Source: Bacilli bacterium
GTDB taxonomy: Bacteria > Bacillota_I > Bacilli_A > RF39 > UBA660
Length of the DNA: 64,000 bases
Assembly (NCBI GenBank): GCA_017484125.1
Contig: JAFUTV010000006.1
Location: forward strand, 1,658 to 65,657
Direction: 5' to 3'
Shown: positions 1 to 30,420 of the stretch, piece after piece
How the letters are laid out: each line of letters starts with the position of its first letter
Position numbering within the stretch: position 1 is the first letter of the stretch
Translations under genes and position numbers: made by a program
The notes under the pieces: model-generated
What the model was told of the DNA's origin: nothing
The model's input: the letters and a program-made list of their open reading frames with translations, nothing else
The model's database searches: none

Positions 1-3000
1 CCTTCAACCTCTAAGTTAGAAAGGTATGTATTTCTTGATTTACCTTTAACAACATTTAAATGATATGTCTTAGTTAAAGCGTTTAGTCCATCATATACTT
101 CAATATCAACCATTGTATTTCCAACAGGTAGTTGATAATTATCAACTTCTTCACCATCTACTTTAACCTTAACAGTTTGTTGATCATTTAAAGTAGTATA
201 AGCAACATCTAATGGATTATATTCATATGGAACTTTAATTTCATATGTTGATCTACTTCCAGTAAATGCTGGAGAAAGTACAAACTCTGTTGGTAAGAAT
301 TCTAATTCTTCATCATAGTTTAATCCAAGATCTGCAAGTTCTTTATCAGTCTTAATAGATCTATGAATATTAACTGTATAATAACTTGTATCACCATTTT
401 CAGCTTGTAATACTATTTTGTTTTCTGTATCATCTTCAGTTAATGTTATTTCACCAGTTCCAGAAAGTATTGCTATATCATCATCAGATGTAGTAGCACT
501 AATTGTTACTTTAGTTTCATTTTCATATAGATATAAATCATATGTTTTTGTTACTGGAGTAAATACTGGAGTTAATCTTCCTTTATTTGCACTTAAACTA
601 TCAAGTTGTGTAAAGTTAGATTTTTCTCTTGTAACAACTATTGTATAAACCTTAGTTACAGTTTCATCATAAGATTTAACTGTTACTTTATAATCAGTTG
701 TTTGTTTTGTAGAAAGACTAACCGTTTCTTGTTTAGTTATTTTTGCATTTGGATCACTTGACGTTGCAATAACATCATTTGGTGTTAGAGTTGCCTTTTC
801 ATTTGGTACTGTTACATGATATGTATAAGTATTTTCATCAAAATCATATTCATCAGTGAAATCATAACCTTCAACATATAAGTTGCTTAATAATGCGTTA
901 TCAGTTCTATCCCTAGTAACATTAATTGTATATGTATCAGTTGAATTTCCATCTTCAGATGTTATTGTTATTTCTCTTTGAGAAGTTCCAACAGCAACAT
1001 ATTCTAAACTATTACCAGTTACTGTTGCAAATTTATTAGTTGTATCTACAGTAAATGATAATTGAGTTATGTTAGAAGCTATTCTTAAATTATAAGTCTT
1101 AGTTGCTGCAGCAAATTCTGGATCTAATGTTCCATTTGATGGTGTTATTAAAGTTACGCTTGCATCACTTGATATTTCACGATTAACAATAATCTTATAT
1201 GTCTTAGTAACAGTTCCATCATAAGATTTAACTGTTACTAAATATTCAACTTGTGATTTACCAATTAAACTTGTATCACCTTGTTTAGTTATTTTAGCAT
1301 TTGGATCACTTGATGTTGCAATTATTTCACTTGGTGATATTACTTCTTTAGAATTTGGAACATGAATATTATATACAGGTGTTTGTTCAATGTCATATTC
1401 ACCTTCGTCAAATTCATATCCAATTACTTCAAGATTAGATAAGTCAGCATTATCAGTTCTATCTCTAATAACATTAATTGTATATTGTGCTGTATTTTCA
1501 TTATCTTCAGCAGTTATTGTTATTACTCTTTGAGAAGTTCCAACAGCTAGGTTTAATTCCTCATTACCAGTAACTGTAGCAAATTCATCAGTCTTATTAA
1601 CATTAAATGATAATTTATCAACATTTGATCCAACTCTTAAAGTATATGTTGAATTATTTTCATCAAATACTGGATCTAATGTTCCACTTGATGGAATAAT
1701 GTTTGTAATTGTTGTGTTACTACTTGCTGGTCTATATACATTAACAGTATAAGTTCTTTCCTTTCCAGAAAGTGATTTAACAACAATTTCTAAACGATTA
1801 TTACCAAGAATTATTGTTCTATTGCCAAGGCCTGTAACAGTAGCTCCTTCACTTACTGTTCCAGCAAAGTTAATTACTTTTGTTCCTGGAGCAACATTAA
1901 TTATATAACTATCAGTTTTTGAATCAAATTCAGGAGAAATTGCTTGTGCAACATTGTTTACTTTAGCTGCAAAAGATAATAAGTAATTATCATTTGCTTC
2001 AGCTCTAGTAACAATAACTTTATAATTTCTTCTTATACCTAAATTAACAACACTAACAACAAATTCATTTTTACCTGTTTCAAGATCTTTTTCACCAAGT
2101 CCAGTTACTGTTGATGTTGCTTCTGCTACTTGACCATCAATTGTGATTTTTTCAACATCACTTGCAACAGAAACATTATATGTTAATGTAGTTTGATTAA
2201 ATTCAGGATCTAAACTTCCTTCACTTACTGTTAAGTTACTTAAGAAATTATTAACATAAGCTTGTCTTACAACATTAAGTGTGTAAGTTTCATGTTTTTC
2301 ATCATCTCTTGATGATGTATTAATTAATACAGTATTTGAACCAACATTAAAGTTTTCATTACCAACTATTGTATATGTGCCAAGTCTATCAAGCATTGTT
2401 GGATGAATATTAAGTTCAGTAGTTTCATTATTTACAATAATATTATAGTTAAATGTTGTAGATTCAAATGTAGGTAATATATCATAATCATCTACTTCAA
2501 TATTAGTTAATAATGCAGATATAGCTTCTTCTCTAGTTACATTTAATGTAATAGTCTTAGTTTTACCAGATTCAGATGTTATAACTACTCTAACTGTATT
2601 ATTAGGTCCTACTTGGAAATTAGAATTACCAGATACTGCATAACTTGCAGTTAAATCTTGTAAAACAATATTTAAATTTAGTGAAGTTTCTTCATAAGGA
2701 ACGGAAACATTATAAATTGAATATTGTTCACTATAAACTTTATCCATAGTACCATTTAAAACTTCAAGAACATTAACTGTATTATTATCACTCTTTTGTC
2801 TATAAATATTAATTGTATATGTTTTTGTTGTATTATCTTCAGATGTAACAACAACATTTATAATATTTTCACCTGTATTTAAGTTAACAACTCCAGTTCC
2901 ATCAACCGTTGCGTTCTTATCATCTGCTTCAGCAATAATATTAACTGAAGTAATATTATTTGGAATATCCGTTGTTAAACTATAATTTGTTCTATTTGAA

Positions 3001-5900
3001 TCAAACTCAGGAATTAATTTATATCCTTCAACTTCTAATTTAGATAAGTTAGCATTATCTGATTCTTGTCTTTCAACATTAAAGATATATTCTTTAGTTG
3101 AAGTACCATTTTCAGCAGTTACTTTTATCTTAACTGTATAATTTCCTACATCAGTCCAAGAGTTTCCTGTTACAACATATGTTGCATTTAAATCCATTGG
3201 AGTAATAGTAGTGAAATCTAAACTATTATCTTTAGTTGTTACATTGTATGTATAAGTATCTGTTCCAAAATTAATACTCTTATCTTTAATTACTACATTA
3301 GATAATCTAGCTTCATCATTTTTTAATCTATTAACTAGGATTTGATAATCTCTAATTTTATCATCTTGTCCTGTTACTCTTATAGTAAATAAATTATTTC
3401 CTGTATGTAAATCATGAGTGCCATTTCCTTCAACTGTTGCATTTTCATCTTCAGAAGTACCATTAAATGTCATTTGAGTAGTAGTATATGGTACTTCAAC
3501 TTCATAGAATTGATTTGTCTTATCAAATGTTGGTTCAAGACTTCCATCACTTATTGTTAGTGAAGAAAGATATGTACTAAATTCACTAAATTCTTGTCTT
3601 ATTACTCTAATATTATAAGTTTTTTCACTTTCGTCTTGAGCCGTTACTTTTACAGAAACAATATTTTCACCTACAACAAGATTTGTATTTCCACTTACTT
3701 CAACAGTTGCATCATTATTTTCTGTTTCATATACAGCATGTACTTCCTCTACATCATAAGGTACTCTTACAACATATTCAATAATATTTTTATCAAAATT
3801 AGGACTTAATTTACCTTCTTTAATGAATAAATCACTTAAATTAGCATTTGCAGATTTATCTCTAGTAACTGTAATGTTATAAGTTAGTGTCGTTGTATTA
3901 TCTTCAGCTAATGTTGTTAATACTATGTTATTTTCTCCAGCTACTAAAGTATAATTTCTATTTCCAGTTACTGTTGTTGTTGAAGCTTCTGGTGTTCCAT
4001 TTATATCAATTGAGGTAACATCAGAACCCACATTAATTGAATAATTAAATTCATTTTTATCAAATGATGGTGAAAGTGTTCCAACTGAATTTACTATACT
4101 AGATAAGTATCCATTAGAATTTGGTAATCTAGTAATATCAATTTGATATGTTTTTTCAGCACCACTCTCACTCTTAACTTTAACAAGTATTTCATTTAGG
4201 CCAACACGAAGTGAATATCTCGCATTACCCGTTACTTTTGCTAAATTTGATGCAGGTGTTGCAACAACATTTACCCAGTTTACTTCATTTTCAACTGTTA
4301 GTGTAAAGTGATCGTCATTTGCTTCTGAATCAAATGCAGGTGTTAAAATAAATTCTTGATTATCATTAGAAACTCTTAATCCACTTAAACCATTATTTGT
4401 ATCAGATGGTCTAGTTATTGTTATATTATATGTCTTAGTAGTATTATCTTCAGCTCTAACTAAGATTCTCTTTAAATTTGTGCCAACATTAATTTTATTA
4501 TTATCAAGTAATTGATATGTAGCAAATTCGCTTTCTAATTCTATATTAAACTCTACTTCACTAGTTCCAATTGGTGCTGTTAGTTCATAATTAAGCTCAT
4601 CAGCATCAAATTCTGGAGTATAAGCAGTATTTACATCATCAAGTAATACTTTTAATGATGAAATATTAGCATTATTATCTTTTTCTCTGAAAATATTAAT
4701 TTTATATGTTTCAACATAACCATCAGATTCAGCTACTGTTACAATATCAAAGTAATTATTACCTTTATTTAAAGTTTTAATACCAGCGCCAGAAACGTTA
4801 GTTGTTACGCTTTCAGGATTAGCTATGATATTAACTTCAGATACATCTTTATCAACAGTTACTTTATATGTTCCAAAATTTATTTTATTAAATTCTGGTA
4901 TCAAATCATAATTAATAGTTCCATCCGTAGATTTAACAGCAAGTGATTCTAAATATATATTTGTATTTGGTTCTCTATAAACATTTAATGTATAAGTTTG
5001 AGTTTCACCATTTTGGGCAACAATCATAATTGGAATTGTATTTTGTCCAACATGTAGATTTCCATCACCTAAAAGGTATGCAGTTGCATTAGTATCATCA
5101 GTTTCATAATATAATTGCATTATATTTTCAGCTAATTCAGTATTTTTTTCTTCAGTATTATTTATAACATAACTATCATAATCATTACCTACAGTAAAGT
5201 AATATTCTGTTACTTCTGGATCAAATACAATAGATATATTATCAGGACTTATTACTTTTAATTTAGATAAGTCATTGTCACCTGTCATATCTCTTGTTAC
5301 ACGATAATTATAAACACTACTATTTGTTTTATCTTCACTATTTACTGTTATTGTAAATAAATTAGCATTTGGTCTAACAGATACTGCTCCTTCACCGCTA
5401 ACATCTTGGAAGTAATGCCCTTTTTCTACATTAAAGTAAATTTCTCTAATTTTATAAGGTATAGTTAATTCATAAGTAGTATTATCTGAGCTAAATGTTG
5501 AAGGCTCAACATTACAATATGATTCATCAATAGCACAATATGATGGAACAAGTCCAGATATTGTAATATTATTTGGTAATCCATTAGAATTTGCTTGTCT
5601 TGTGAAATTAATGTAATAAATTCTAACATCACCAGATTGTGCAGTAACAGAAACTGGAACAATTGTTCTTCCTTGTGGATCATTATTAACATCAGCTGGA
5701 ATATAATGTGTTCCAAGTCCATCTATTGTTGCAAGACTACTACTTGGTCTAGCTTGAATTTTTACTTCTTCTTCTGTATCAGTTAATGTAACATTATAAG
5801 TATAAGTTGTAACATCAAATACTTCTTCCCATGTTCCACCATCAACAGCTCCAACATCAGTTGAAAGTGATTCCAAGAAATTATTTTTATTTAAATCAAC
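1..5900 (-). repeat. Tandem coding repeats (about 240-290 bp each, about 21 copies) encoding cadherin-like beta-sandwich modules inside the giant ORF
   Basis: Each unit ends with a recurring motif: IYYINFTR, TYTLNVYR, TYNITITR, TYQIDITR, TYNITVTR, TYTINIYR, TYTVNVYR, QYTINVIR, TYTINVTR and so on. Copies counted by hand. Confidence 0.75.
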
Positions 5901-7508
5901 AAATGTAATTCTAGCATAACCATTACCAGCATTACCAGTCATTGTATCTTCTGTTCCATCATGTTTAGGCATCGTAGATGTTCCATCAATCATTTCTGCT
6001 TCTTCAAAAACTTTGCCTGAATAATGAACTTGACATTCACTATTATCATTTCCAGTAGCACATTGTACATCATCTATTTCTTTAGGAGAAATATTATCTT
6101 CAGAAGTAACAGCAACTACTCCAGGATATCCAGAAATAAATGATGAACCTCCTGCGCCATATCCAGTAGCATTAGCATCACTCTTAACACCAGCACCACC
6201 ACCGAAATATCCAGCTCCACCACCAGTTCCAGTAGTTCCAGCATTACCACCAACACCAAATGATCCATTTCCTGCAGAACCATTATTAGTACTTGCTCCG
6301 CCAATTCCACCTGTTGTTTGAGTTCCGCCTGTACCATGGTATGAACCGCTTGTAGCTAGTCCTCTTAAAGCACCACCAGCACTAGATGAAGATCCAGCAC
6401 CACCAGCACCTGCAACCATAATACGAGATGCTAAAGATGCACTATTATTCCACTCAGTTTTAGATGATCCTGTTTTTAAACGAATGTCAGTAGCACCACC
6501 ACCACCATTACCAGTAGTAGATGTTCCACCACCATTCCAACCGCCAGCAGTTGTTGTTGGTTGATTTCCTACATAAACATAAACTTTTTCATCAGCTTCA
6601 AGTCTTAATAAACCTTTAGTATAAGCACCATTACCACCATTTGATCCACCTTGAGCTCCCCAAAGTTCTACTAAATATTTACCATTTTTTGGTGCAGTAA
6701 ATGTTTGATATTCTCCTGTATAAGAATATCCATCAACAAAACTTTGATTTACTCTAAGATAAGAAATTGTGTAAACTTGGTCTTCAGCAATATGAGGTTC
6801 ATGAACAGTTATAGTAATTGTTCCAGATGGTTCAAGCATTAAATCAGCACCAGTAACAGTTACTTCTGCTTCTGGATCAAATACATCAGTAGTAATATTT
6901 AAATATAACTCACTTTCTAAGATATCTAAGCCATAAGTATCAGTAAGAGGATCATATCTTGGATCAAGTGAACTATCATATCCCTCAATTTTTAAAATAC
7001 TTAATTTATTTGAATGTTCATTTGGATGATCTAATGGAGTTCTAACTGCATTAATTGTATATATTCTAGTTTCCCCTGCAGCATTAGTAACAGGAATATT
7101 AACAACTGTTGTTTTACCATATTCAACATAATATTCTTGATTTAATCCAGCAACTGTAGAAGTTTCTTCAAAAATAGAACCAGTAAGAGTAAAGTATTGT
7201 TCATAAGTTCCTAGAGTAAGAGTATAGTTAGTTATTAAAGGATTAAAGACAGGATCTAAAACACCTTTAGTAGATTCTAAAGTTTCTAAACACTTGTCTT
7301 CAATAGTCATTAAATAAAGTCCATCTAAGGCATCGTTAACATTATCTACATCCCAGTTTTCATCAGCTGGTGTATATCCTACATCATAAGCATATGTATC
7401 ATAAGCTTTAACACTATTTGTAAACACACAAAAAGACATTAGTATAATTACTAACATAATTAAAATATTAAATTTATTTTTTAAATTTATTATTCTGTTT
7501 TTCATCAT
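1..7508 (-). CDS. Giant secreted surface protein, C-terminal part beyond the left window edge. Layout: signal peptide, LH-family handle, 2 cadherin-like repeats, glycine-rich domain, then about 21 more cadherin-like beta-sandwich repeats
   Basis: Manual minus-strand translation from ATG 7505/7508 (RBS GAGGAA) stays open to nt 1 (codon starts = 2 mod 3). It begins MMKNRIINLKNKFNILIMLVIILMSFCVFTNSVKA/YDTYAYDVGYTPADENWDVDNVNDALDGLY. The ~80-95 aa repeats look like L(S/T).L.V..G.L.P.FD....Y...V...TY.INV.R. The track lists no ORF in this phase, as expected for an ORF with no in-window stop. Confidence 0.85.
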   Translation of the reverse strand, partial: MMKNRIINLKNKFNILIMLVIILMSFCVFTNSVKAYDTYAYDVGYTPADENWDVDNVNDALDGLYLMTIEDKCLETLESTKGVLDPVFNPLITNYTLTLGTYEQYFTLTGSIFEETSTVAGLNQEYYVEYGKTTVVNIPVTNAAGETRIYTINAVRTPLDHPNEHSNKLSILKIEGYDSSLDPRYDPLTDTYGLDILESELYLNITTDVFDPEAEVTVTGADLMLEPSGTITITVHEPHIAEDQVYTISYLRVNQSFVDGYSYTGEYQTFTAPKNGKYLVELWGAQGGSNGGNGAYTKGLLRLEADEKVYVYVGNQPTTTAGGWNGGGTSTTGNGGGGATDIRLKTGSSKTEWNNSASLASRIMVAGAGGAGSSSSAGGALRGLATSGSYHGTGGTQTTGGIGGASTNNGSAGNGSFGVGGNAGTTGTGGGAGYFGGGAGVKSDANATGYGAGGSSFISGYPGVVAVTSEDNISPKEIDDVQCATGNDNSECQVHYSGKVFEEAEMIDGTSTMPKHDGTEDTMTGNAGNGYARITFVDLNKNNFLESLSTDVGAVDGGTWEEVFDVTTYTYNVTLTDTEEEVKIQARPSSSLATIDGLGTHYIPADVNNDPQGRTIVPVSVTAQSGDVRIYYINFTRQANSNGLPNNITISGLVPSYCAIDESYCNVEPSTFSSDNTTYELTIPYKIREIYFNVEKGHYFQDVSGEGAVSVRPNANLFTITVNSEDKTNSSVYNYRVTRDMTGDNDLSKLKVISPDNISIVFDPEVTEYYFTVGNDYDSYVINNTEEKNTELAENIMQLYYETDDTNATAYLLGDGNLHVGQNTIPIMIVAQNGETQTYTLNVYREPNTNIYLESLAVKSTDGTINYDLIPEFNKINFGTYKVTVDKDVSEVNIIANPESVTTNVSGAGIKTLNKGNNYFDIVTVAESDGYVETYKINIFREKDNNANISSLKVLLDDVNTAYTPEFDADELNYELTAPIGTSEVEFNIELESEFATYQLLDNNKINVGTNLKRILVRAEDNTTKTYNITITRPSDTNNGLSGLRVSNDNQEFILTPAFDSEANDDHFTLTVENEVNWVNVVATPASNLAKVTGNARYSLRVGLNEILVKVKSESGAEKTYQIDITRLPNSNGYLSSIVNSVGTLSPSFDKNEFNYSINVGSDVTSIDINGTPEASTTTVTGNRNYTLVAGENNIVLTTLAEDNTTTLTYNITVTRDKSANANLSDLFIKEGKLSPNFDKNIIEYVVRVPYDVEEVHAVYETENNDATVEVSGNTNLVVGENIVSVKVTAQDESEKTYNIRVIRQEFSEFSTYLSSLTISDGSLEPTFDKTNQFYEVEVPYTTTQMTFNGTSEDENATVEGNGTHDLHTGNNLFTIRVTGQDDKIRDYQILVNRLKNDEARLSNVVIKDKSINFGTDTYTYNVTTKDNSLDFTTITPMDLNATYVVTGNSWTDVGNYTVKIKVTAENGTSTKEYIFNVERQESDNANLSKLEVEGYKLIPEFDSNRTNYSLTTDIPNNITSVNIIAEADDKNATVDGTGVVNLNTGENIINVVVTSEDNTTKTYTINIYRQKSDNNTVNVLEVLNGTMDKVYSEQYSIYNVSVPYEETSLNLNIVLQDLTASYAVSGNSNFQVGPNNTVRVVITSESGKTKTITLNVTREEAISALLTNIEVDDYDILPTFESTTFNYNIIVNNETTELNIHPTMLDRLGTYTIVGNENFNVGSNTVLINTSSRDDEKHETYTLNVVRQAYVNNFLSNLTVSEGSLDPEFNQTTLTYNVSVASDVEKITIDGQVAEATSTVTGLGEKDLETGKNEFVVSVVNLGIRRNYKVIVTRAEANDNYLLSFAAKVNNVAQAISPEFDSKTDSYIINVAPGTKVINFAGTVSEGATVTGLGNRTIILGNNRLEIVVKSLSGKERTYTVNVYRPASSNTTITNIIPSSGTLDPVFDENNSTYTLRVGSNVDKLSFNVNKTDEFATVTGNEELNLAVGTSQRVITITAEDNENTAQYTINVIRDRTDNADLSNLEVIGYEFDEGEYDIEQTPVYNIHVPNSKEVISPSEIIATSSDPNAKITKQGDTSLIGKSQVEYLVTVKSYDGTVTKTYKIIVNREISSDASVTLITPSNGTLDPEFAAATKTYNLRIASNITQLSFTVDTTNKFATVTGNSLEYVAVGTSQREITITSEDGNSTDTYTINVTRDRTDNALLSNLYVEGYDFTDEYDFDENTYTYHVTVPNEKATLTPNDVIATSSDPNAKITKQETVSLSTKQTTDYKVTVKSYDETVTKVYTIVVTREKSNFTQLDSLSANKGRLTPVFTPVTKTYDLYLYENETKVTISATTSDDDIAILSGTGEITLTEDDTENKIVLQAENGDTSYYTVNIHRSIKTDKELADLGLNYDEELEFLPTEFVLSPAFTGSRSTYEIKVPYEYNPLDVAYTTLNDQQTVKVKVDGEEVDNYQLPVGNTMVDIEVYDGLNALTKTYHLNVVKGKSRNTYLSNLEVE
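627..1730 (-). repeat. Tandem duplication of a two-repeat superunit (about 555 bp, 185 codons, x2) within the giant ORF
   Basis: Unit 1182-1730 (..SSGTLDPVFDENNSTYTLRV..QYTINVIRDRTDNADLSNLEV..ATSSDPNAKITKQ..TYKIIVNR) parallels unit 627-1181 (..SNGTLDPEFAAATKTYNLRI..TYTINVTRDRTDNALLSNLYV..ATSSDPNAKITKQ..VYTIVVTR). Local near-identical DNA runs occur, e.g. gcatttggatcacttga at ~745 and ~1305. Confidence 0.7.
5905..6735 (-). other. Glycine-rich domain (ALK/LTK-type, PF12810-like pattern) within the giant ORF
   Basis: Translation: YQTFTAPKNGKYLVELWGAQGGSNGGNGAYTKG..VYVGNQ..GGWNGGGTS..GGGGATDIR..RIMVAGAGGAGS..GGTQTTGG..GGGAGYFGGGAG..GAGGSSFISG..GNAGNGYARITFV. The motif order matches the four Gly-rich array genes. 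Confidence 0.6.
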
Positions 7509-7534
7509 TTCCTCATACTCCTACTATTGAGATA

Positions 7535-7564
7535 ATTATAACATTAAATCAATGAATAAATCTA
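7535..7564 (-). promoter_or_regulatory. Candidate sigma-A type promoter of the giant gene (extended -10 TGtTATAAT, weak -35 TAGATT)
   Basis: The minus strand reads ..gTAGATTtattcattgatttaaTGtTATAATtatctc.., about 25 nt upstream of the RBS/ATG. It lies downstream of the terminator at 7695-7721. Confidence 0.35.
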
Positions 7565-7694
7565 CTCTTTTTGAAATTTTTTTTAATTTTTTTTTAGTAT
7601 TTTTTATAAGTTCCTTAATTATGAGGAAATTTAGTAGTTTTTTTTAAAAAAATATCGTTTTCTTTCCTTATTATATATAACTATATAAAAGGCA

Positions 7695-7721
7695 TAAAAA
7701 AACAAGTATAAAAATACTTGT
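7695..7721 (-). terminator. Rho-independent terminator ending the 28-gene array
   Basis: Minus strand: ACAAGTAT-tttt-ATACTTGT (8-bp stem, 7702-7709/7714-7721) followed by TTTTTTT. It sits 45 nt after the stop of 7766..8572. Confidence 0.65.
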
Positions 7722-7765: not shown

Positions 7766-8572
7766 TTATACACCATAAAATTGAAGGCCACCTATTTCAA
7801 CATAACTTGAAGAATATATATTAACTATAAATACTCTCCAATATTGATATGATTCATCTAATTTAGTATTAAATAAATAAACCGTAGAATTAGTATTAGC
7901 AAGTGTATAATTATCTGATGCATCAACCCATGTGCTATTATCATTACTTGCTTGTAATCTTACTGTTTTAGCTTGATAAGACTGTGGACCACCATTTAAA
8001 AACTTAGTTATTCTAACATTAACATTTGTATTAAATTTATATCCAATATATTGATTAGTTGTTTTACCATTGACATTACACCATGATTCACTTGCTTCAA
8101 TAAAAGCTTTCCATCCAGCCCAATTAGAAGAATATTCAGTACTATATATAACATTTGTATTATTTGATAAAGTTGGAACAAGTGCAGTTTTTAGTGCATT
8201 TAAAAGTGTAACATTAACTTTGTTTCTAAAATAAGTACTATCCATCATTTTTTTAGCTGCCGCTTTATTACTTGATATTTTACTCATAAAATTAGTAGTT
8301 AAGACATCATTTATATCAACTTTATCACCAGTTATATCAAGTATTTTTTTTAACTCTTCATCAGTATAGCCATTATTAATTTTATATAAACTATCTAAGG
8401 CATCACTAACATTTTCTATTGATGAGCCATCTTCTTTTTTCCAAGAATTATCAGTTGGAGTAAATCCAACATCATTTGAAAAAATTGAAAACGCCAAAAC
8501 AGATGTTATAGTAGTTGTTAATATAACACCTAAAATAAAGGTAAAGACTGAATTATTAAATATTTTCTTCAT
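7766..8572 (-). CDS. LH-family member 28 (long handle). Head: linker plus F5/8 type C (discoidin)-like domain
   Basis: N-terminus MKKIFNNSVFTFILGVILTTTITSVLAFSIFSNDVGFTPTDNSWKKEDGSSIENVSDALDSLY. C-terminus ..WKAF..NQYIGYKFNTNVNVRITKF..ASNDNSTWVD..YWRVFI..EIGGLQFYGV. Confidence 0.85.
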   Translation of the reverse strand: MKKIFNNSVFTFILGVILTTTITSVLAFSIFSNDVGFTPTDNSWKKEDGSSIENVSDALDSLYKINNGYTDEELKKILDITGDKVDINDVLTTNFMSKISSNKAAAKKMMDSTYFRNKVNVTLLNALKTALVPTLSNNTNVIYSTEYSSNWAGWKAFIEASESWCNVNGKTTNQYIGYKFNTNVNVRITKFLNGGPQSYQAKTVRLQASNDNSTWVDASDNYTLANTNSTVYLFNTKLDESYQYWRVFIVNIYSSSYVEIGGLQFYGV

Positions 8573-8629: not shown

Positions 8630-9202
8630 TTATTCAAATTTTATATATCTAAGAACATAACTATCAGGATCATATGAATTAGTACCTTTATTATTAGATA
8701 CTAATGTTCCGTCCTCAGCAAATGTACATCTATAAAATACAAAATCTAGTTTTTGATCAAAATATTGGCTAGAATTATATCTACTAGACCCAGAACTTGT
8801 AAATCCTTTTGAATCAATTATTGTACATGTTCCATTTGTTGGTGTTAAATATACTGTACTGTCTCTTGTATTTACATAATTACATGTAGTCATTGCACCT
8901 GAATAAGAATATATTAAAGCTACTAAATATTTACCTTTAGTGGTATTAATACTTACATTATAATTACTTGTTCCATGCGCTTGTCCATAGGTTCCTAAAA
9001 CATTAGTTGAAGATACTTTATATAAAGGATTATCAGATAAAATATGTAAATAATCAATGGCATCACTTACATTATCTACATCCCATGTATTATCACTTGG
9101 AATATACTCTGTATCAGAAGAAAGGAAAGAAAACGCAAAAACAGTACTTATACTTCCAAAAATAAGTGCACCTAAAATAAAGCTAACTATTTTTCTTTTC
9201 AT
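8630..9202 (-). CDS. LH-family member 27. Small beta-rich head (KGKY type), paralog of 9226..9819
   Basis: N-terminus MKRKIVSFILGALIFGSISTVFAFSFLSSDTEYIPSDNTWDVDNVSDAIDYLH. Head ..TKGKYLVALIYSYSG..LTPTNGTCTIID..YDPDSYVLRYIKFE. Confidence 0.85.
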   Translation of the reverse strand: MKRKIVSFILGALIFGSISTVFAFSFLSSDTEYIPSDNTWDVDNVSDAIDYLHILSDNPLYKVSSTNVLGTYGQAHGTSNYNVSINTTKGKYLVALIYSYSGAMTTCNYVNTRDSTVYLTPTNGTCTIIDSKGFTSSGSSRYNSSQYFDQKLDFVFYRCTFAEDGTLVSNNKGTNSYDPDSYVLRYIKFE

Positions 9203-9225: not shown

Positions 9226-9819
9226 TTAATCTTTAAGTCTTATATACCTCATTACATATGTATCTGGATCATAGTTATTTGTTGCATAAGTTGTTGATGT
9301 AACAGAGCCATTTTCTTTAAAATCACATAAGAAAAATCCAAAACGTAATGTATTATTAAAACGATAATTACTAGAATACGCAACTGAATTTCCTCCACTG
9401 CCATAAAAATAAGAATCAATTGTTGTACATGTTCCATTTGTTGGAGTTAAACCTATTCCACCTTGAGATATTGAAGAATAATTATTTGCTTGAATTCCAC
9501 CACCATAAGAATAATATAGCATTACAAAGTATTTTCCTCTAGTAAAATTAGCTGATAAACTATTACTACTTGAAGCATGTGCTTGCTTATATGTTCCTTG
9601 AACATCATTACTATCTAAAGCCATAAATTTTTCTATTCCTATTTCATGAATAGATTCAAGAGCATCATAAACATTATCAACTTACCATTTATTATCTTTT
9701 GGAGTAAAGCCAATATTTGAAGCTATAAGTGAGTATGCAAAAACTGGTGTTATAAAGCTAAAAATAATAGCACCTAAGATAAAATAAAAGATATCTGAAT
9801 TTATTATTTTTTTTATCAT
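9226..9819 (-). pseudogene. LH-family member 26 interrupted by a single in-frame TAA at codon 46 (9682-9684). The head ORF 9226..9624 is still intact
   Basis: Manual translation from ATG 9819: MIKKIINSDIFYFILGAIIFSFITPVFAYSLIASNIGFTPKDNKW*VDNVYDALESIHEIGIEKFMALDSNDVQGTYKQAH.. It is in frame with the track ORF 9226..9624 (195 nt = 65 codons apart). Confidence 0.8.
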
Positions 9820-12160: not shown

Positions 12161-13033
12161 TTAATTATCCATTATTACTCCTGTTGGTTGAAATTGAACA
12201 TTACCATATGTTTCATTATCACTAGATTTAGCAGATACATAAAAGTTGGTATATACTTTTTCATTACTACTTACATCAACTGTTGTATTAACTATTGTTG
12301 CTGATCCAACCTTTACTCCACGTCCGGCTGAAAAACTTTTTATTAATTCCCAACTATTATTTGTATATCCATAAACATATACATATACAGTTGAAGCATA
12401 TATTGCACTACTATTACCAAATGCTCCATATATGTAAAACTTCTTTAACTGTAAATTACAATTACCATAAGTTAATAATGTTGTTGTATTATTAGTTCTA
12501 AGAACATATGGATATGATCCATTAGAGGCAGAGTAATTTTTATTTTCTAATGTAGATGTAGTTTTTAAACTTTGTGATTTACTTCTTAAATATTTATTGT
12601 AAATATCATATGCCATTACATAAACATTGTATTTTTTATTAGAGGTTAATCCAGAAATAGTTAGTTCATTACTTGTTGACATATTTAAATAAATATTTTG
12701 TTCATCATCTATAGCAAATGCATGATAGCCAAATATTTTATTATTATCAGTTGCTTCAACTGTTGGTATTACTTTAATACTATCATTTGTTAATACTGAT
12801 GTAAAAGAGACATTAGTTATAATATCACTTCTTGTTTTTGATTTGGCATATAATTCATTTATAGCTGTTTCTACTTCTTGAATATCATCACCTTCATCTG
12901 TTTTCCATGTAGTGTCTACTGGAGTAAAACCAACATCACTAGCTATAAAAGAGAATGCAAATACTGATGTAGCACTTGCTACAATTAAACCTAAAATAAA
13001 TATAAATAATCTTGATTTAATTAATCTTTTCAT
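12161..13033 (-). CDS. LH-family member 22 (long handle). Head: FN3-like domain plus an extra beta domain
   Basis: Leader MKRLIKSRLFIFILGLIVASATSVFAFSFIASDVGFTPVDTTWKTDEGDDIQEVETAINELY. Head ..ELTISGLTSNKKYNVYVMAYD... Confidence 0.85.
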   Translation of the reverse strand: MKRLIKSRLFIFILGLIVASATSVFAFSFIASDVGFTPVDTTWKTDEGDDIQEVETAINELYAKSKTRSDIITNVSFTSVLTNDSIKVIPTVEATDNNKIFGYHAFAIDDEQNIYLNMSTSNELTISGLTSNKKYNVYVMAYDIYNKYLRSKSQSLKTTSTLENKNYSASNGSYPYVLRTNNTTTLLTYGNCNLQLKKFYIYGAFGNSSAIYASTVYVYVYGYTNNSWELIKSFSAGRGVKVGSATIVNTTVDVSSNEKVYTNFYVSAKSSDNETYGNVQFQPTGVIMDN

Positions 13034-15755: not shown

Positions 15756-16550
15756 TTAATATAAGTTTGATTTAAACACTATTATTACCGGGCGAACTCC
15801 AAAATACTGTGAATATGATGGATTAGTTTGATTAAATGTTCCTGTATATTCAATACGATATGCTTGCGATGATGATGTACTAACATCTCTTAACCAATAA
15901 CCATTTGCTGAAGCATCACTTGCATCTGTACAGCCTCTAGTATTGCAGCTATTTAAATGATTAAATAACCAAGCATATTTACTAGAATTACATGAACTTA
16001 CACTTCCTCCCGTAGCTAAACACCATGAATTATCCCCTTCAACTATATAACCATCACTTCTTACTGCATCTACTACTGATTGGGCTCTAGGTAAATCAAT
16101 ATATTGAACATTTGTCCACGTCCTTCCATAATTTTCACCATCTTGTCCAGTTTTGAAATATTTCATAGCGGTAAACCATGACGTTGTACCAACATTTATA
16201 TTTCTATCAAGGATCATTTCTACTTGATCACTTTTTATATTTAATATGTAAAAATATCTTTTTTCTCCATCTCCTGGATCACATAAGTATTTAGTTCCAA
16301 TACTATAAAGATCATCGAGATTAGAAAACTCACTATCAACATATGTACAAAACTTTAAGAATGCTTTGGAATTATATTTATCATGTAAATCATCTAGAGC
16401 TTCTTTAACATCATTAACTTGCCATGTATTATCTCTTGGAGTAAATCCTACATTACTAGATATAATAGAGTATGCTAAAGTTGATACTGATGAAAATATT
16501 ACAGCACCTAATATGAAATATAATAATCTTGATTTAAATATTCTTTTCAT
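15756..16550 (-). CDS. LH-family member 16. Cys-containing DUF6273-like head
   Basis: Leader MKRIFKSRLLYFILGAVIFSSVSTLAYSIISSNVGFTPRDNTWQVNDVKEALDDLH. Head GTKYLCDPGDGEKRYFYILNIKSDQVEMILDRNI..GYWLRD..FGVRPVIIVFKSNL. Confidence 0.85.
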   Translation of the reverse strand: MKRIFKSRLLYFILGAVIFSSVSTLAYSIISSNVGFTPRDNTWQVNDVKEALDDLHDKYNSKAFLKFCTYVDSEFSNLDDLYSIGTKYLCDPGDGEKRYFYILNIKSDQVEMILDRNINVGTTSWFTAMKYFKTGQDGENYGRTWTNVQYIDLPRAQSVVDAVRSDGYIVEGDNSWCLATGGSVSSCNSSKYAWLFNHLNSCNTRGCTDASDASANGYWLRDVSTSSSQAYRIEYTGTFNQTNPSYSQYFGVRPVIIVFKSNLY

Positions 16551-17932: not shown

Positions 17933-18988
17933 TTAATTAATACCTAGTAATGTTATTCTTGCAAATCCATTTCCTTTCTTTGCTTGATTACTATTAGCAC
18001 TCTCATTAAATTCTTGTGTTATTTCTGTTTTAGTATTTTCTTCATTTGATTCATATTTTGTATTTGTTGAATACATAACCATCTTTTTATTTGTTAGAGT
18101 TGGATTTAAATATCCAGAACCTCCACCTGAACCAGCGTGTGCAGCAGAACCACCACCGTAGTAGCCACCACCACCACCAGATGATCCATTTTGTCCAGTT
18201 CCACCTTTTCCAAGTAGACCGTTACCTCCACGGTAACCTCCCGTTCCACCTGAACTTTGTGTTCCACCTTTAGCAGGATCAACACCATAGCCAACAGTGA
18301 ATCCATCGGCACCTTGTTTACCTCCACCGGCACCTCCGTTTACTGAATAATCAGCACCATTTGTGTGGTAATATGCTCCAGCTCCTCCACCAGCAACAAT
18401 AAGTAAATTTTCTCTCATTGTTGATGAAGTAAGAAGTCCAGTTGAAAGTGAAATTGATGTGGCACCTCCACCACCGGCAATATAGTTTTTATTGTCTGGA
18501 TATTGAACTCCTGTTCCACCACCGTTATATCCTCCAGCACAATTTGCATTTAAACATCCACTTTCTCCTTTTGTTCCAACATTGATGTATAAGTTAGTAT
18601 CTTTTTCTAAATTAATAACTCCTGTTGAATAAGCACCATATCCACCAATATAATTATTTATTGCATCTCCTCCTTGTGCTCCCCATACTTCAAGCTTATA
18701 TGTTCCGCTTGTTGGTACTTTAAATACTTCTTCTCTAGATAAGTATTCAAAGTTCCATGTTAGTCCCATTACACTTACTTTGCAATAAGTACAAGTAGTA
18801 TGTAAATCATCAAGTGCTTCACCAGTGTTTTCAATATCACTTCCATCTTTATTCTTCCAAGTATCATCTGCTGGTGTAAATCCAACATTTGGTGCAAATA
18901 AATCATATGCAAAAACTGATGTAATGCTAGCAGCTATTGTTACACCTAATATGAACATAAATATTGGATTTTTAATTAGTTTTTGCAT
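17933..18988 (-). CDS. LH-family member 13 (long handle). Head: C.YC motif plus glycine-rich (ALK/LTK-type, PF12810-like) domain
   Basis: Same MNYM-MQK start structure as its neighbour. Sequence ..FAYDLFAPNVGFTPADDTWKNKDGSDIENTGEALDDLHTTCTYCK..SGTYKLEVWGAQGG..GGGGATSIS..LIVAGGGAGAYY..GGGGGYYGGGSA..KKGNGFARITLL. Confidence 0.85.
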   Translation of the reverse strand: MQKLIKNPIFMFILGVTIAASITSVFAYDLFAPNVGFTPADDTWKNKDGSDIENTGEALDDLHTTCTYCKVSVMGLTWNFEYLSREEVFKVPTSGTYKLEVWGAQGGDAINNYIGGYGAYSTGVINLEKDTNLYINVGTKGESGCLNANCAGGYNGGGTGVQYPDNKNYIAGGGGATSISLSTGLLTSSTMRENLLIVAGGGAGAYYHTNGADYSVNGGAGGGKQGADGFTVGYGVDPAKGGTQSSGGTGGYRGGNGLLGKGGTGQNGSSGGGGGYYGGGSAAHAGSGGGSGYLNPTLTNKKMVMYSTNTKYESNEENTKTEITQEFNESANSNQAKKGNGFARITLLGIN

Positions 18989-19026
18989 ATAATTCATTCC
19001 TTTCTATTATTTTTTTTGTTTATTAA

Positions 19027-20671: not shown

Positions 20672-21760
20672 TTAACTTACTGTTAGAAGTGTAACTTTGG
20701 CATAGCCATTTCCACTTTTAGCATAATCACTTATTGGATTACTTGAAACATTTGTTGTAGATATAGTTTTAGTACTTTTTTCATCTGAAGTTGTGCAATT
20801 ATAACATGTCATATGTTTAGTAATTGTATTTAGTGATTTTAGATTAGATGAAGCAATATAACTTGAACCACCTCCAGCTCCAGCTACGGTAGAACCTCCA
20901 CCGCCATAGTATCCGCCTCCACCGCCGGAGCCTCCACCATTGTTACTTGCTGTACTGGAGTTACCACCTTTTCCAAAACTACCAGATGAAGGTGCTCCGC
21001 GCGAACCAGATGCAAAGCTTCCACCAGCACTTTGAGTTGCACCATATCCTTCTCTACCATTTGTTGAAGAACTTTTACCACCATTTATTCCTTTTATTCC
21101 TCCAGCAGATCCTCCATTAGCATTTTCGTTAGAAGCATAGTAATATGCTCCGCCTCCGCCACCGGAAGCAATTAATAACATTTCATTAGTTACAGCTTGA
21201 GTATAACCTAAAGATGCTAATGTTCCACTTTTCATAGCAATATGAGTTGCTCCACCGCCAGAGGCATTATATGTATTATTATTTAGCCAATGATAAGAAT
21301 TTCCTCCACCATTATATCCTCCAGTATAATCTCCCGTTGTTGAAGTACCATTCGTTCCAGCACCACCAACATTTATAAATAGTTTTTGTCCTTTTGTTAG
21401 TGAAACAACTCCTATAGAATATGCACCATATCCACCTACTTTATTTCCAGGAGTTGATCCCCCCTGCGCTCCCCATGTTTCTAAAATATATATTCCATTT
21501 AACGGAACAGTAAATTGTTCTTCTTTTCCTTCATAAGCAAAGCCCCATTCAAGTCCATCAAATCTTGTTTTGCAATAATCACATGTTTCATGTAAATCAT
21601 CTATTGCACTACCAGTATTATCAACTTCCCAATCTTCATCTTTTGGATTATAACCAACATCATTAGCAAATATTGAATATGCAAAAACTGATGTTATACC
21701 TATTGTTGATAAAACACCTAATATATAAGTAAATATTGGATTTTTTAATAGTTTTTGCAT
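20672..21760 (-). CDS. LH-family member 9. Head: C.YC motif plus glycine-rich (PF12810-like) domain
   Basis: Sequence MQKLLKNPIFTYILGVLSTIGITSVFAYSIFANDVGYNPKDEDWEVDNTGSAIDDLHETCDYCK..NGIYILETWGAQGG..SGGGATHIA..LIASGGGGGAYY..GGGGGYYGGGGS..KSGNGYAKVTLL. Confidence 0.85.
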   Translation of the reverse strand: MQKLLKNPIFTYILGVLSTIGITSVFAYSIFANDVGYNPKDEDWEVDNTGSAIDDLHETCDYCKTRFDGLEWGFAYEGKEEQFTVPLNGIYILETWGAQGGSTPGNKVGGYGAYSIGVVSLTKGQKLFINVGGAGTNGTSTTGDYTGGYNGGGNSYHWLNNNTYNASGGGATHIAMKSGTLASLGYTQAVTNEMLLIASGGGGGAYYYASNENANGGSAGGIKGINGGKSSSTNGREGYGATQSAGGSFASGSRGAPSSGSFGKGGNSSTASNNGGGSGGGGGYYGGGGSTVAGAGGGSSYIASSNLKSLNTITKHMTCYNCTTSDEKSTKTISTTNVSSNPISDYAKSGNGYAKVTLLTVS

Positions 21761-22404: not shown

Positions 22405-23478
22405 TTATGGAGCAACTATTGAATAATTAGTTTCATTGTCATAAATAATACTGTTTGGTTTTATACTTACAATTGGGTTAAAGTTTACATTTCCATCTTT
22501 GTCAGCATAACACCATGTTTTATTACCATTTAAAATCATTACCCAACCATTTCCATAACTACCAGGACTTGAAAACCAGAATTTTGTATTAGATAAACCA
22601 AATGTATTATCAATTCCAGTCCATGCATTATATGTATAACCAGTAGAATTAAATTGACTATAATTAATGCTTGATCCAGTTTTTAAGTTATATCCAGAGA
22701 AGAACAAATCGATTGTTGGACCTGCTGCTGCAAAGTCACATATATCACTTTTACAATAACTTGAGTAATTTGATGGAGTTAACATACTCCAAGTTTTGGA
22801 TGCACCATTAGCATTTCCATTTGAACTACTATATTGTTTAGCCCAAGCTAACAAATTGTTTCCAGAAGACTTATTTAAAACACTATTTGCATACGTGCCA
22901 TTAGCTGTTGGCTTGCCACTCCATCTAGCAGTTTTACTAATCAAATACATATGAACACCATCAGTTGCAAATTTATTGCCAATAAATAGTATTATCCAAT
23001 TACTATCGCCATTATAATTTACCGTTTTTCCAAGGAAACTCTTATAATCAGATGAAGCAATTTTAGATATTTGTTGTCCATATATCCATTTAGCAAATAA
23101 TACTTTATCATCAGTGGTATCTAAATTATCAACCGTTACTTTAGTGGTATAAGTATCATCGGTATACCAACCAGCAAATACATAATCTTCTTTAGTAGCA
23201 GTTGGTAAACTCCATAGTTTTTCACCCTTAGCCACTTTTATTAAAGATGTTCCTGATGTTCCACCGTTTGTAATAAAACGTATTGTTGAAAATGATGCAT
23301 TTAAGTCGTACAAGTTATCCAATGCTTCTTTTGTATTTTCTACTTCCCAAGAATCATCTTTTGGAGTGTATCCTACATTTTGTGCAATTATAGAGTATGC
23401 AAAAGCAGATGTCATACCCACAAATATAATGGCACCAAGTATAAAGAATAATAATTTTGATTTAAATATCTTTTTCAT
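22405..23478 (-). CDS. LH-family member 7. Head: Listeria-Bacteroides (Flg_new) repeat plus DUF6273-like domain
   Basis: Leader MKKIFKSKLLFFILGAIIFVGMTSAFAYSIIAQNVGYTPKDDSWEVENTKEALDNLY. Then TIRFITNGGTSGTSLIKVAKGEKLWSLPTATKEDYVFAGWYTDDTY..VLFAKW. C-terminus ..FWFSSPGSYGNGWVMILNGN..NPIVSIKPN. Confidence 0.85.
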   Translation of the reverse strand: MKKIFKSKLLFFILGAIIFVGMTSAFAYSIIAQNVGYTPKDDSWEVENTKEALDNLYDLNASFSTIRFITNGGTSGTSLIKVAKGEKLWSLPTATKEDYVFAGWYTDDTYTTKVTVDNLDTTDDKVLFAKWIYGQQISKIASSDYKSFLGKTVNYNGDSNWIILFIGNKFATDGVHMYLISKTARWSGKPTANGTYANSVLNKSSGNNLLAWAKQYSSSNGNANGASKTWSMLTPSNYSSYCKSDICDFAAAGPTIDLFFSGYNLKTGSSINYSQFNSTGYTYNAWTGIDNTFGLSNTKFWFSSPGSYGNGWVMILNGNKTWCYADKDGNVNFNPIVSIKPNSIIYDNETNYSIVAP

Positions 23479-24110: not shown

Positions 24111-24938
24111 TTATTCTGGTGTCACATACACCTCAGTAATATAGTCATATGTATCCCAGTTTGCTATATGTATTTGACCAGTATAGTTATTAAGTGTAAA
24201 TTTATCTAAATATGCTCCCGTTGTTCTATTAGAACTTGCAATATTATTTACACTAATATATGGTACATTTGTTCCACTAATTGATGTTTTATAGTATTTA
24301 ACATAAATACTTTTATATTTTGATACATCAATACTATTTACGGTTATCATTCTTGATTTTGAACATCCAGCAGCTGAATTATATAAAAGTATATTTGTTG
24401 AATTTTTTTGAAATAATCCTCTTCTAGGGGTACATCCTTCATCTACTATTTCTACATTCCATCCTCCTGTTATTATCTCATATTCATTCCCATCATTATA
24501 TAACCATATTCTATTTAAAGTTGTTAAATCTGTTTCTGAAGTTTTGACTAATTTATCATTCGAATCATAAGCATTTACTTTAATTTTATATGTCGTATTT
24601 AGATTTAAATTAGTAAACGTATATGTATCACTTGTTGAATTTTCTTTGAATACATTATCTATGTAATAAGTATACTTTGAAGATATTTGTTTTACATAAT
24701 CTGGTATTTTTACTTTTATATATGTTCCATTTAATTCAAGAGCTTCAACATTAAATGAATTAATTCTATTATGCAAATCATCTATAGCATCTTTTGTATT
24801 ATCTACTTTCCAATTACTATCTCTTGGTGTAAATCCTACATCATCAGCTATAAGTGAGTATGCAAAAACTGATGTAGTGCTTACTACAATTAAACCTAAA
24901 ATAAATACAAATATTCTTGATTTAATTAGTTTTTGCAT
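24111..24938 (-). CDS. LH-family member 5. Head: FN3-like domain plus 'TGGW' beta domain (related to member 1)
   Basis: Leader MQKLIKSRIFVFILGLIVVSTTSVFAYSLIADDVGFTPRDSNWKVDNTKDAIDDLH. Then ..TFTNLNLNTTYKIKVNAYD.., then IWLYNDGNEYEIITGGW... Confidence 0.85.
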   Translation of the reverse strand: MQKLIKSRIFVFILGLIVVSTTSVFAYSLIADDVGFTPRDSNWKVDNTKDAIDDLHNRINSFNVEALELNGTYIKVKIPDYVKQISSKYTYYIDNVFKENSTSDTYTFTNLNLNTTYKIKVNAYDSNDKLVKTSETDLTTLNRIWLYNDGNEYEIITGGWNVEIVDEGCTPRRGLFQKNSTNILLYNSAAGCSKSRMITVNSIDVSKYKSIYVKYYKTSISGTNVPYISVNNIASSNRTTGAYLDKFTLNNYTGQIHIANWDTYDYITEVYVTPE

Positions 24939-29400: not shown

Positions 29401-30420
29401 TTATTTATTAATATTATATTCTTCAGCATTAATATTATTAATATCAATGTTGTTTTGACTACTTGAATCAATTATCGTACTTGAATTAACAACTCTAACT
29501 GGTTGTGGTGTTGGAATATCATTTAGTGATGGCATATTTTCAGGCACTGGTGCTTCATTTGGTGTAGGATTTGGTAATGTGTCTGGTGTTACAAATACAG
29601 ATGAAAATTGATCATTTTGTGGTGAAGTCAAAGGAACTTCTTCAGCTGCTTGATTAAAGCTTATAGGTTCTTGTTGTGCTTCAGTTTCTTGTTTTACACC
29701 TTCTTTTTGATATTCTGCAAGAAGAGTTGCTGCTATTTCATCTAAATCACTTTCTGCTTTAGTAATATCATCAGTTGTTGTTTCTTTTGGCTCAGTAGCA
29801 TCAATACTTGGTGCTAAAACAGGCTCAGAAACAACTGGATTTTCAACGTTAATTTGTATTGGTTGATTTTCAATTGGTTGTAATACTGGTTCTTCCTTGG
29901 TTTCCACTTGAGGAATAACTGACTCTGTTGGTGCTACAACTGTTTCTGAAGGTACTGATGTTAATTCAATTGGTGCATTTAAATCTATATTAGTTGGTGA
30001 TACTTCACTTTCTACAGCACTTGGCGCTGGTTCAACAACATTTTGTTCAACTATTTGTGTAGGTGGTTCAACAGCTACATTTTCAAAAGTATCACTTACT
30101 GGGGTTACATTATTAACAATATCATCACCAACAGTTACAGTAGGAACTACTTCTGGTTGAATTTCTTGAATTGCTGGAGTAACTTCAACTGGTTGATTAG
30201 CATCTGGTGTTGAAGTTAATTCAACTGGAGTTGGATTTTGCTCAACTTGATTAAAAGCATCAACACTTTGTGGATTTTCTTCTGCTTTCTTTTTATTCTT
30301 CTTACCATCTTTTATAGCCAATATCAAAACAACAACAAAAAGTATTGCTAAAAAAATTATTATTCCAAATAACACTGGTGCAAAATATTCTTTACTATAT
30401 AAATCTTCTAAAAAACTCAT
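29401..30420 (-). CDS. Membrane-anchored low-complexity (P/E/V/T/Q-rich) protein, function unknown
   Basis: N-terminal TM segment FAPVLFGIIIFLAILFVVVLILAI followed by KKNKKK. The remainder is a proline/glutamate/valine-rich, extended-looking sequence. Confidence 0.6.
   Translation of the reverse strand: MSFLEDLYSKEYFAPVLFGIIIFLAILFVVVLILAIKDGKKNKKKAEENPQSVDAFNQVEQNPTPVELTSTPDANQPVEVTPAIQEIQPEVVPTVTVGDDIVNNVTPVSDTFENVAVEPPTQIVEQNVVEPAPSAVESEVSPTNIDLNAPIELTSVPSETVVAPTESVIPQVETKEEPVLQPIENQPIQINVENPVVSEPVLAPSIDATEPKETTTDDITKAESDLDEIAATLLAEYQKEGVKQETEAQQEPISFNQAAEEVPLTSPQNDQFSSVFVTPDTLPNPTPNEAPVPENMPSLNDIPTPQPVRVVNSSTIIDSSSQNNIDINNINAEEYNINK

Follow-up and report, generated by a model that had tools for sequence, protein, structure and literature searches.

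A giant cadherin-like repeat protein of an uncultured Bacilli bacterium carries the N-terminal handle of a neighboring array of small, probably secreted proteins

The sequence analyzed here, referred to as the window, is a stretch of 64,000 nucleotides from a Bacilli bacterium (GTDB lineage Bacteria; Bacillota_I; Bacilli_A; RF39; UBA660), taken from NCBI GenBank assembly GCA_017484125.1, contig JAFUTV010000006.1, positions 1,658 to 65,657 of the forward strand; positions are counted from its first letter. Its left end is occupied by a minus-strand gene, in the following called the giant, whose first 2,502 residues lie in the window, and beside it stands an array of small genes, each composed of a leader, a conserved module of 30 residues termed the handle, and a variable head. 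The giant carries the same handle behind a leader of a different kind. No covering model for the handle was found in Pfam, NCBIfam or PHROGs, and no description of the handle, the giant or the array system was found in the literature. An earlier note, made from the letters of the window alone, had pointed out the giant and its handle, and its claims are taken up below where results bear on them.

Open frame and domain layout of the giant

Translation of the minus strand from the ATG at 7508 to window position 3 gave 2,502 codons with zero stops, which upheld the frame of more than 2,500 codons, open to the left edge, described in the earlier note; no in-frame stop had been overlooked. As the note had presumed, the frame was missing from the open reading frame (ORF) track since that track leaves out ORFs running off an end, and only short antisense or off-frame ORFs were listed there (five overlapping 1–7600, of 63–85 amino acids (aa); three antisense, two off-frame on the minus strand). 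The window DNA is contained in the 226-kilobase (kb) ENA scaffold XIEF21-1_SAMN15829977_METAG-scaffold_48 (L001), which was 100% identical across all 2,502 residues and in which no stop interrupts the frame up to at least aa 3,247, the gene call being 4,007 aa. An independent Logan assembly of another run differed at 1 base in 9,335, its first 1,268 codons being identical. The DNA has a guanine plus cytosine (G+C) content of 26%, and as chance stops are frequent at such a composition, an open frame of this length is far from chance; repeat collapse is not a concern because mean identity among the stalk repeats is as low as 26%. The giant thus has a genuine open frame. The features of the giant and its surroundings were as follows.

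3–7508, minus strand: N-terminal 2,502 codons (62%) of the 4,007-aa gene, stop-free in frame, leaving the window at its left edge
7404–7508, minus strand: predicted Sec-type signal peptide, aa 1–35, MMKNRIINLKNKFNILIMLVIILMSFCVFTNSVKA, with four K/R in the n-region and a 16–17-residue uncharged core
7314–7403, minus strand: handle, aa 36–65, YDTYAYDVGYTPADENWDVDNVNDALDGLY, matched over its full length by a profile of the 27 array members only (39.4 bits)
7278–7313, minus strand: post-handle segment, aa 66–77, LMTIEDKCLETL, from the alignment of the giant with its partial orthologs P0001 and P0002
6750–7289, minus strand: two cadherin-like beta-sandwich repeats, aa 74–157 and 171–253 (PF12733; repeat profile 59.2 and 58.2 bits)
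5901–6689, minus strand: ALK/LTK-type glycine-rich domain (TNF-like plus polyglycine), aa 274–536 (PF12810)
42–5858, minus strand: stalk of 21 complete cadherin-like repeats, aa 551–2489 (repeat profile, 55–92 bits each)
3–23, minus strand: start of the next repeat, cut at the window edge and complete in L001 as aa 2496–2580
7517–7543, minus strand: candidate extended −10 element TGTTATAAT (7535–7543) and ribosome-binding site AGGAGT (7517–7522), by consensus matches only
7696–7721, minus strand: terminator-like AT-rich hairpin and T-run, ACAAGTAT-TTTT-ATACTTGT-TTTTTT, after the last array gene, from sequence and RNA folding
7766–28736, minus strand: array of 27 intact genes and one disrupted gene, each leader, handle and variable head

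By the −3/−1 rule, the signal peptide would be cut between VKA and YD, with V at −3 and A at −1. Pfam models confirmed the domain order proposed in the earlier note: the hidden Markov model for PF12733 (Cadherin-like), which the note had suggested running, scored 406 bits (cut-off 24.2, E = 3.5e-124) over 16 stretches, and PF12810 (ALK_LTK_GRD) scored 138.9 bits (cut-off 24.5, E = 3.7e-40). A self-built repeat profile placed two repeats ahead of the glycine-rich (Gly-rich) domain; behind it, the window part contains 21 complete repeats and a partial one, which gives 23 complete repeats, where about 23 had been estimated; through aa 3,221 there are at least 31. The stalk repeats are mostly linked by 6 residues, and their mean pairwise identity is 26%. 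One stretch of the stalk (window 624–1709, minus strand; giant aa 1934–2295) arose by recent tandem duplication of two repeats: those at 1934–2016 and 2023–2111 are 59–60% identical to those at 2118–2200 and 2207–2295, compared with the stalk mean of 26%.

PF12733 and PF12810 were the only Pfam families in aa 1–3,247. The precomputed Pfam list for the 4,007-aa product also includes Big_2 (PF02368) and Dockerin_1 (PF00404), which must therefore lie in the last ~760 aa. Extension of the contig in search of a C-terminal anchor, as the earlier note had advised, thus succeeded in part: the frame could be followed to aa 3,247, and the list gives Big_2 and Dockerin_1 but no LPXTG, S-layer homology (SLH) or cell-wall binding family, the list standing in for a direct reading of the C-terminus. 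Cohesin was found neither in aa 1–3,247 with Pfam nor in the precomputed list for the full product. At E <= 0.05, neither the giant nor any of 20 array proteins matched the prepilin family PF07963, and the G-F-T-L-I-E motif is absent from them. Between the giant and the array lies a gap of 257 base pairs (bp), which holds the AT-rich hairpin with its T-run; together with the giant's own ribosome-binding site and −10 element, this indicates that the giant is probably a transcription unit of its own. A G+C-based terminator scan did not report the hairpin at 7696–7721.

The neighboring array and its handles

In total, 29 handle copies were counted in the window, comprising those of the 27 intact array genes, of one disrupted member (9229–9819) and of the giant, the only one of the 29 that lacks the array leader. 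That leader has the conserved sequence MKKLFKSRIFFFILG...SVFA, and a profile made from its 27 array copies had no match on the giant; the two leaders are thus unrelated, as had been stated before, and the giant is a separate branch with only the handle in common with the array. The handle profile, built from the 27 array members only, aligned end to end with giant aa 36–65 at 39.4 bits, with E = 2e-14 when this one sequence was searched and E = 2e-11 when all 985 six-frame ORFs of the window were, which places the array handle at the predicted mature N-terminus where the earlier note had read it by eye. The motif is Y-S-x-x-A-x-D-V-G-F/Y-T-P-x-D-x-x-W-x-V-x-N-V-x-x-A-L-D-x-L, and a strict degenerate DNA pattern for it had 11 matches in the window and 0 in 100 shuffles.

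Array heads recognized by Pfam were Gly-rich (four), F5/8 type C, H-type lectin, Flg_new and DUF6273. The Gly-rich domain of the giant had been described as of the same type as the four Gly-rich array heads; this held for the Pfam family, but the identity to them is only 28–37%. These four heads (17933–18997, 20672–21760, 24959–26038 and 26930–28015, minus strand) all show a CxxC motif right after the handle helix, e.g. ETCDYCK, and three of them a second Cys pair, CYNC or CYKC, near the C-terminus; both Cys motifs are lacking in the giant domain.

The handle occurs in two lengths, 8 of the 27 array members having a six-residue insert after the conserved aromatic residue, usually Trp, e.g. WKKEDGSSIENV; examples are 8378–8500, 12842–12964 and 18794–18916 (minus strand), and the long variant is present in other organisms too. 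The disrupted 28th member (9229–9819, minus strand) consists of a leader with a truncated handle (9685–9819), a frame break and a head (9229–9681) paralogous to the adjoining head at 8630–9202. A polymorphic toxin array was considered and rejected, as the recognized heads are lectin-like or binding domains and the intergenic gaps of 11–57 bp leave no space for immunity genes.

Distribution and constraint of the handle

The handle profile was searched exhaustively against 1.84 billion cluster representatives, of which at least 1,069 matched at E <= 1e-3 and 146 at E <= 1e-10; a word-indexed search with leader plus handle returned only 16 short fragments. The best 150 representatives are mostly 140–530 aa long, and 148 of them carry the handle directly behind a short hydrophobic leader, at about residues 24–58 (start at about 8–31, end at about 40–66). 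When 135 representatives were scanned, 14 heads were Gly-rich, 7 discoidin (F5/8 type C), 2 H-type lectin and 1 ConA-like, and the remainder had no Pfam match; the heads behind the handle are mutually unrelated. Loci that could be recovered have 24–34% G+C and housekeeping genes as neighbors. Judged by these sequences, the handle family is one of low-G+C Bacilli proteins, nearly all with a predicted signal peptide, the handle and a variable, often lectin-like head.

The Ala–Tyr junction in front of the handle is near-invariant, with small residues at −3 and −1 (VFA, VLA, AFA, VKA) and Y at +1 in > 90% of members, and as this pattern is conserved across two unrelated leader types, it looks typical of a signal peptidase I site. 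In the two partial orthologs of the giant, P0001 (87% identity) and P0002 (51%), signal peptide, handle, two repeats and Gly-rich domain follow each other as they do in the giant. Among the giant orthologs, VGYTPAD..WDVDNVNDAL.GLYLMTIE.KCLETL is near-invariant while the signal peptide and the rest diverge; its post-handle segment is peculiar to the giant type and likewise near-invariant. The handle occurs behind the array leader, the signal peptide of the giant and a pilin-like helix, and also leaderless inside phage fiber-like proteins. A handle that is near-invariant in 51%-identical orthologs, occurs in at least 1,069 clusters and follows several kinds of N-terminus argues for a function of its own, and these comparisons support the handle as an independent module under strong constraint. 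The earlier note, which had suggested such a function from conservation independent of the leader, is in this respect corroborated.

Handle copies in phage and pilin-like proteins

Protein P0125 is leaderless and contains three handle copies (38.8, 24.5 and 32.3 bits). It has a 907-aa protein and a GDSL tail-lysin-like protein on either side and a holin downstream, and its center matches annotated crAss-like and other tail fibers. It belongs to the tail/lysis module of a phage-like contig with 32% G+C (L005, 7261–17135), and each of its handle copies is preceded by an NPHEVK motif. A PDB sequence search with P0125 gave no match, and the closest sequenced relative, a fiber of an Anaeroplasmataceae phage, lacks the handle. 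On a 144-kb viral contig (L012), a fiber-like protein with one internal handle (40.9 bits) was found, and a match of the handle DNA pattern in L011 was set aside as a chance match. Identity of the handle with the canonical phage NPHxVTKxQVGL repeat was rejected, the handle profile scoring < 0 on YomR-type fibers. Sequenced phage genomes gave no match in a tblastn search with two array proteins.

A further protein, P0187, consists of a pilin-like N-terminus and two tandem handles with no other part. In the protein of the next gene, a signal peptide is followed by a handle that has diverged further (EVKYTDNKSVEQALNELY) and by a head. This locus (L013, 997–2114) gives a hint that the motif family is broader and that handles pair with each other. 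What can safely be said is that the handle, as far as its sequence tells, is a portable structural module, mostly cellular, which phage fiber proteins can use too.

Recurrence of the locus in other organisms

One of the two giant orthologs, from a second species, was recovered on a metagenomic locus (L010, 32% G+C). This ortholog, 49% identical to the giant, has an open frame of at least 3,652 residues, and its Gly-rich domain is followed by no fewer than 34 repeats. Directly upstream of it, on the same strand, lies a decayed array-type gene with leader and handle followed by TAG, whose C-terminal remnant resembles the window protein at 24111–24938. The giant layout and its adjacency to array-type genes hence recur in a second species, the synteny evidence covering these two. 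A third organism has a seven-gene handle array (L014) and scattered handle genes (L008), with no giant within ~10 kb.

A scan of genome contigs with aa 2001–2502 of the giant returned only two distant loci (L003 and L004), both handle-free, L004 encoding an unrelated Bacillota protein with the same repeat type. With aa 2950–3247, a metagenome scan gave no match and a large-database search only cadherin-like proteins of <= 30% identity. The matches listed in a first large-database search with the giant were all < 960 aa.

Structure prediction

The array protein 26930–28015, composed of handle and Gly-rich head, was modeled as a monomer with AlphaFold2 from a 67-sequence alignment; the test of the Gly-rich fold covered this array paralog only. 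Mean predicted local distance difference test (pLDDT) was 89 and the predicted template modeling score 0.82, with the head at > 90 and the handle at 52–67. The leader was predicted as a helix (residues 8–30) that continues across the putative cleavage site. For the handle, coil was predicted in the first half and, in the second, the start of a helix (residues 48–66) leading into the head. In the alignments, the motif residues V22, A25, L26 and L29 fall on one helical face. In the model the conserved handle is not folded onto the variable head, which, together with the hydrophobic residues on one face, would suit an intermolecular interface.

Foldseek searches with the head model placed ALK/LTK glycine-rich domains on top (E ~1e-9) and returned 107 viral models, several of them named tail fibers, as well as the Bxb1 tail tip (E = 2.1e-4) and the Pam3 fiber (E = 1.6e-3).

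Interpretation

The giant is best read as a secreted long-reach adhesin fiber whose handle serves as a portable docking or oligomerization adaptor shared with the array, a reading to which a probability of about 55% was assigned. The giant would be exported via the Sec pathway and form a long, thin fiber of the adhesin type, in the order signal peptide, handle, two beta-sandwiches, TNF-like/glycine-rich binding domain, a stalk of some 30 or more beta-sandwiches, and Big_2 and dockerin at the far end. Gly-rich domains of this kind make up the receptor-binding tip in some phage fibers, and that of the giant, like the array heads, may bind glycans or other surface ligands. The handle would belong neither to the signal peptide nor to any head and, after cleavage at the Ala–Tyr junction, would form an intermolecular interface, by which chains could be bundled, as in the N-terminal helical shaft of a minimal phage fiber, or which could plug into one common partner. 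In either case the giant and the 28 small lectin-like proteins would be mounted alike on the surface, with the giant as the long-reach member. One beta-sandwich measures ~4 nm, so that > 30 repeats would span well over 100 nm.

Several points weigh against this reading. The handle profile had no match among solved structures; AlphaFold2 gave a pLDDT of 44 for the N-terminus of the giant, from three sequences; and signal-peptide cleavage was placed by the −3/−1 rule alone. Big_2 and Dockerin_1 are taken from the precomputed list and were assigned to the last ~760 aa by elimination. No gene consistently adjoins the handle arrays across species. On the phage side, the strict handle DNA pattern had 1 genuine match in 2.9 million viral contigs, as against 11 in the window, and the weak YomR-type matches of P0125 stem from the adjoining NPH..QVGL motif and not from the handle.

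The strongest competitor would keep the leaders uncleaved as signal-anchors, with the handle as a conserved membrane-proximal stem, all members as spikes and the dockerin of the giant distal. The array proteins have no other recognizable anchor, and the predicted leader helix 8–30 shows no break at the putative cleavage site. Against this reading stand the small residues at −3 and −1 with Y at +1 in > 90% of members, under two unrelated leader types, and the presence of the handle far from membrane segments in phage proteins. An uncleaved anchor was judged unlikely overall, but it is compatible with bundling by the handle and is a live alternative for the topology.

As a second alternative, the idea of the earlier note that the giant is a scaffold can be spelled out as follows: each of its cadherin-like repeats would bind one array handle, so that about 28 heads are shown on a stalk fixed by the C-terminal dockerin. 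The numbers are of similar order (at least 31 repeats through aa 3221 and 28 array genes), array and giant are adjacent in two species, and a dockerin is listed for the full product. Yet the giant itself bears a handle, repeats averaging 26% identity make a common binding site not evident, cohesin is absent from aa 1–3247, handle arrays in another organism stand without a giant within ~10 kb, and most handle proteins of the family come from contexts where no giant was seen. On balance a scaffold of this kind appears improbable.

It is still less probable that the handle acts together with the signal peptide as a sorting or processing signal, read by a dedicated peptidase, modifier or sorting step (cf. 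YSIRK, lipobox, prepilin) and without a later structural role. The position right behind the leader in 148 of the 150 best representatives and the near-invariant Ala–Tyr junction would fit such a signal, whereas internal or multiple copies in leaderless phage fiber-like proteins and the C-terminal tandem pair in P0187 would not. Thirty conserved residues with an amphipathic helix are also long for a processing signal, and no candidate processing gene is linked to the arrays.

The giant had also been proposed as the ancestral full-length form, in which case the array genes would be its truncated and diversified descendants and the handle merely a mark of descent. Both carry the handle and a Gly-rich domain, and the genes are adjacent. 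This view is very hard to maintain: the Gly-rich domain of the giant is of a different subtype (28–37% identity to the array heads as against ~40% to pilin-linked proteins), the leaders are unrelated and most array heads have unrelated folds, descent alone leaves the strong purifying selection on the handle of the giant lineage unexplained, the small handle-plus-head form dominates (148 of 150 best representatives), and the handle is found in phage proteins too. Finally, the reading of the long frame as a repeat misassembly or decaying pseudogene, to be considered for a repeat-rich gene on a metagenomic contig, is already effectively refuted by at least 3,247 stop-free codons in 26% G+C DNA, by repeats that offer little to collapse at 26% identity, by the agreement of two independent assemblies, by the ortholog (49% identity) of the same layout open for at least 3,652 codons, and by the giant's own ribosome-binding site and promoter-like element.

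Comparison with known systems

Giant repeat adhesins and glycine-rich fiber tips are both already known, and in its domains the giant is a variation on the former; the novelty lies in the handle. Among Firmicutes, multi-repeat PF12733 surface proteins, some with dockerins, likewise have a signal peptide and tens of repeats, and Big_2 and dockerin are listed for the giant; the handle shared with an array and the embedded ALK-type Gly-rich domain are not features of that class.

For the whole arrangement, the closest precedent is gp24, a minimal tail fiber of cyanophage Pam3, whose N-terminal helical domain trimerizes and docks to the baseplate and is followed by TNF-like and glycine-rich receptor-binding domains (PMC9608196). 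The handle-plus-Gly-rich proteins show the same order of parts as this fiber (PDB 7ypx), i.e. helix adaptor, TNF-like and glycine-rich, and the glycine-rich protein of the Bxb1 tail tip (PDB 9d93) is a structural match to the array head model. Unlike these, the proteins described here have Sec signal peptides and are encoded on the chromosome among housekeeping neighbors without virion genes; the handle was not recognized as the Pam3 helical domain by any test run, and the giant adds > 30 beta-sandwich repeats, which phage fibers of that type lack. The giant as a phage tail fiber or receptor-binding protein was therefore rejected, given the signal peptide and the absence of a virion module; the likeness lies in the modules, i.e. 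the handle and the Gly-rich tip.

Pilin-like proteins of other Bacilli that combine PF07963 with PF12810 contain the Gly-rich domains closest to that of the giant, with ~40% identity (e.g. P0004 and P0017, of which P0017 is recorded as prepilin-type, from a Bacilli bacterium). They share with the giant the logic of a conserved N-terminal mounting piece and a binding head, but the mounting piece of giant and array is without a prepilin signal; P0187 joins a pilin-like N-terminus and two handles. With the scaffoldin and dockerin proteins of the cellulosome, the locus has in common one long repeat protein beside many small secreted proteins that share a short module, and a listed dockerin; it differs in that no cohesin occurs in 3,247 residues of the giant, the shared module is N-terminal and not a dockerin, and the heads are lectin-like rather than enzymes. 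The glycine-rich ligand-binding domain of human ALK/LTK is of the same Pfam family and among the top structural matches, but with 17–20% sequence identity and template modeling scores of 0.31–0.43, and since the bacterial and phage versions are fiber tips or heads, no functional equivalence is implied.

Possible significance of the handle

What is new is a handle absent from the libraries that links a 4,007-residue, presumably fibrous protein, a 28-gene repertoire of heads, > 1,000 predicted secreted Bacilli proteins and a few phage fibers. If the handle is the common mounting piece of these proteins, this would explain how small secreted proteins without a recognizable anchor are retained at the cell, and it would amount to a plug-in system for varying surface specificity in poorly known gut bacteria. 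The handle is also a short marker by which such proteins can easily be searched for, and as a defined peptide it lends itself to binding and structural studies.

More speculatively, and rather unlikely as it stands, the handle may self-associate as a bundling unit shared with or borrowed from phage fibers, with Sec-exported carriers co-assembling in mixed bundles. If so, the giant would supply a stalk of > 100 nm, and a changeable, multi-specific tip would arise where two small array proteins associate with its handle, so that the cell would build its own "tail fibers" with about 28 interchangeable receptor-binding heads. P0187 with its two handles and the one-handle head gene next to it would then follow the same principle on a pilus, and Gram-positive bacteria would thereby have a modular surface display of a new kind.

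Host and further genes in the window

Neighboring genes in the window include polA, mutM, ezrA, tRNA ligases and sporulation genes, and proteins of the SpoIIP, SpoIIIAH-like and Germane-domain types are encoded at 41104–42042, 50205–50690 and 50996–51913. With these three proteins and EzrA encoded in the window, a wall-less mollicute was rejected as host; going by this gene content, the host is an uncultured, walled, spore-forming low-G+C Bacilli bacterium. Record names and the sample kinds of relatives suggest a gut origin.

Just upstream of the array, 29401–30420 (minus strand) encodes a protein of 339 aa with one N-terminal transmembrane segment, no Pfam match and a long low-complexity region rich in Pro, Glu and Val; this protein may be a surface protein of extended shape or may span the wall. 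A 528-aa protein 6 kb past the array (34671–36257, minus strand) is without a handle and has a different hydrophobic N-terminus, and it contains Flg_new and DUF6273, which are also head domains of the array members 22405–23478 and 15756–16550. At 52909–53838 (minus strand), a 309-aa ankyrin-repeat protein is encoded, which is unusual in a free-living Firmicute. Nearly all window genes lie on the minus strand, and the plus strand is strongly skewed in composition, with T at 25,488 versus A at 21,700 and C at 10,081 versus G at 6,731.

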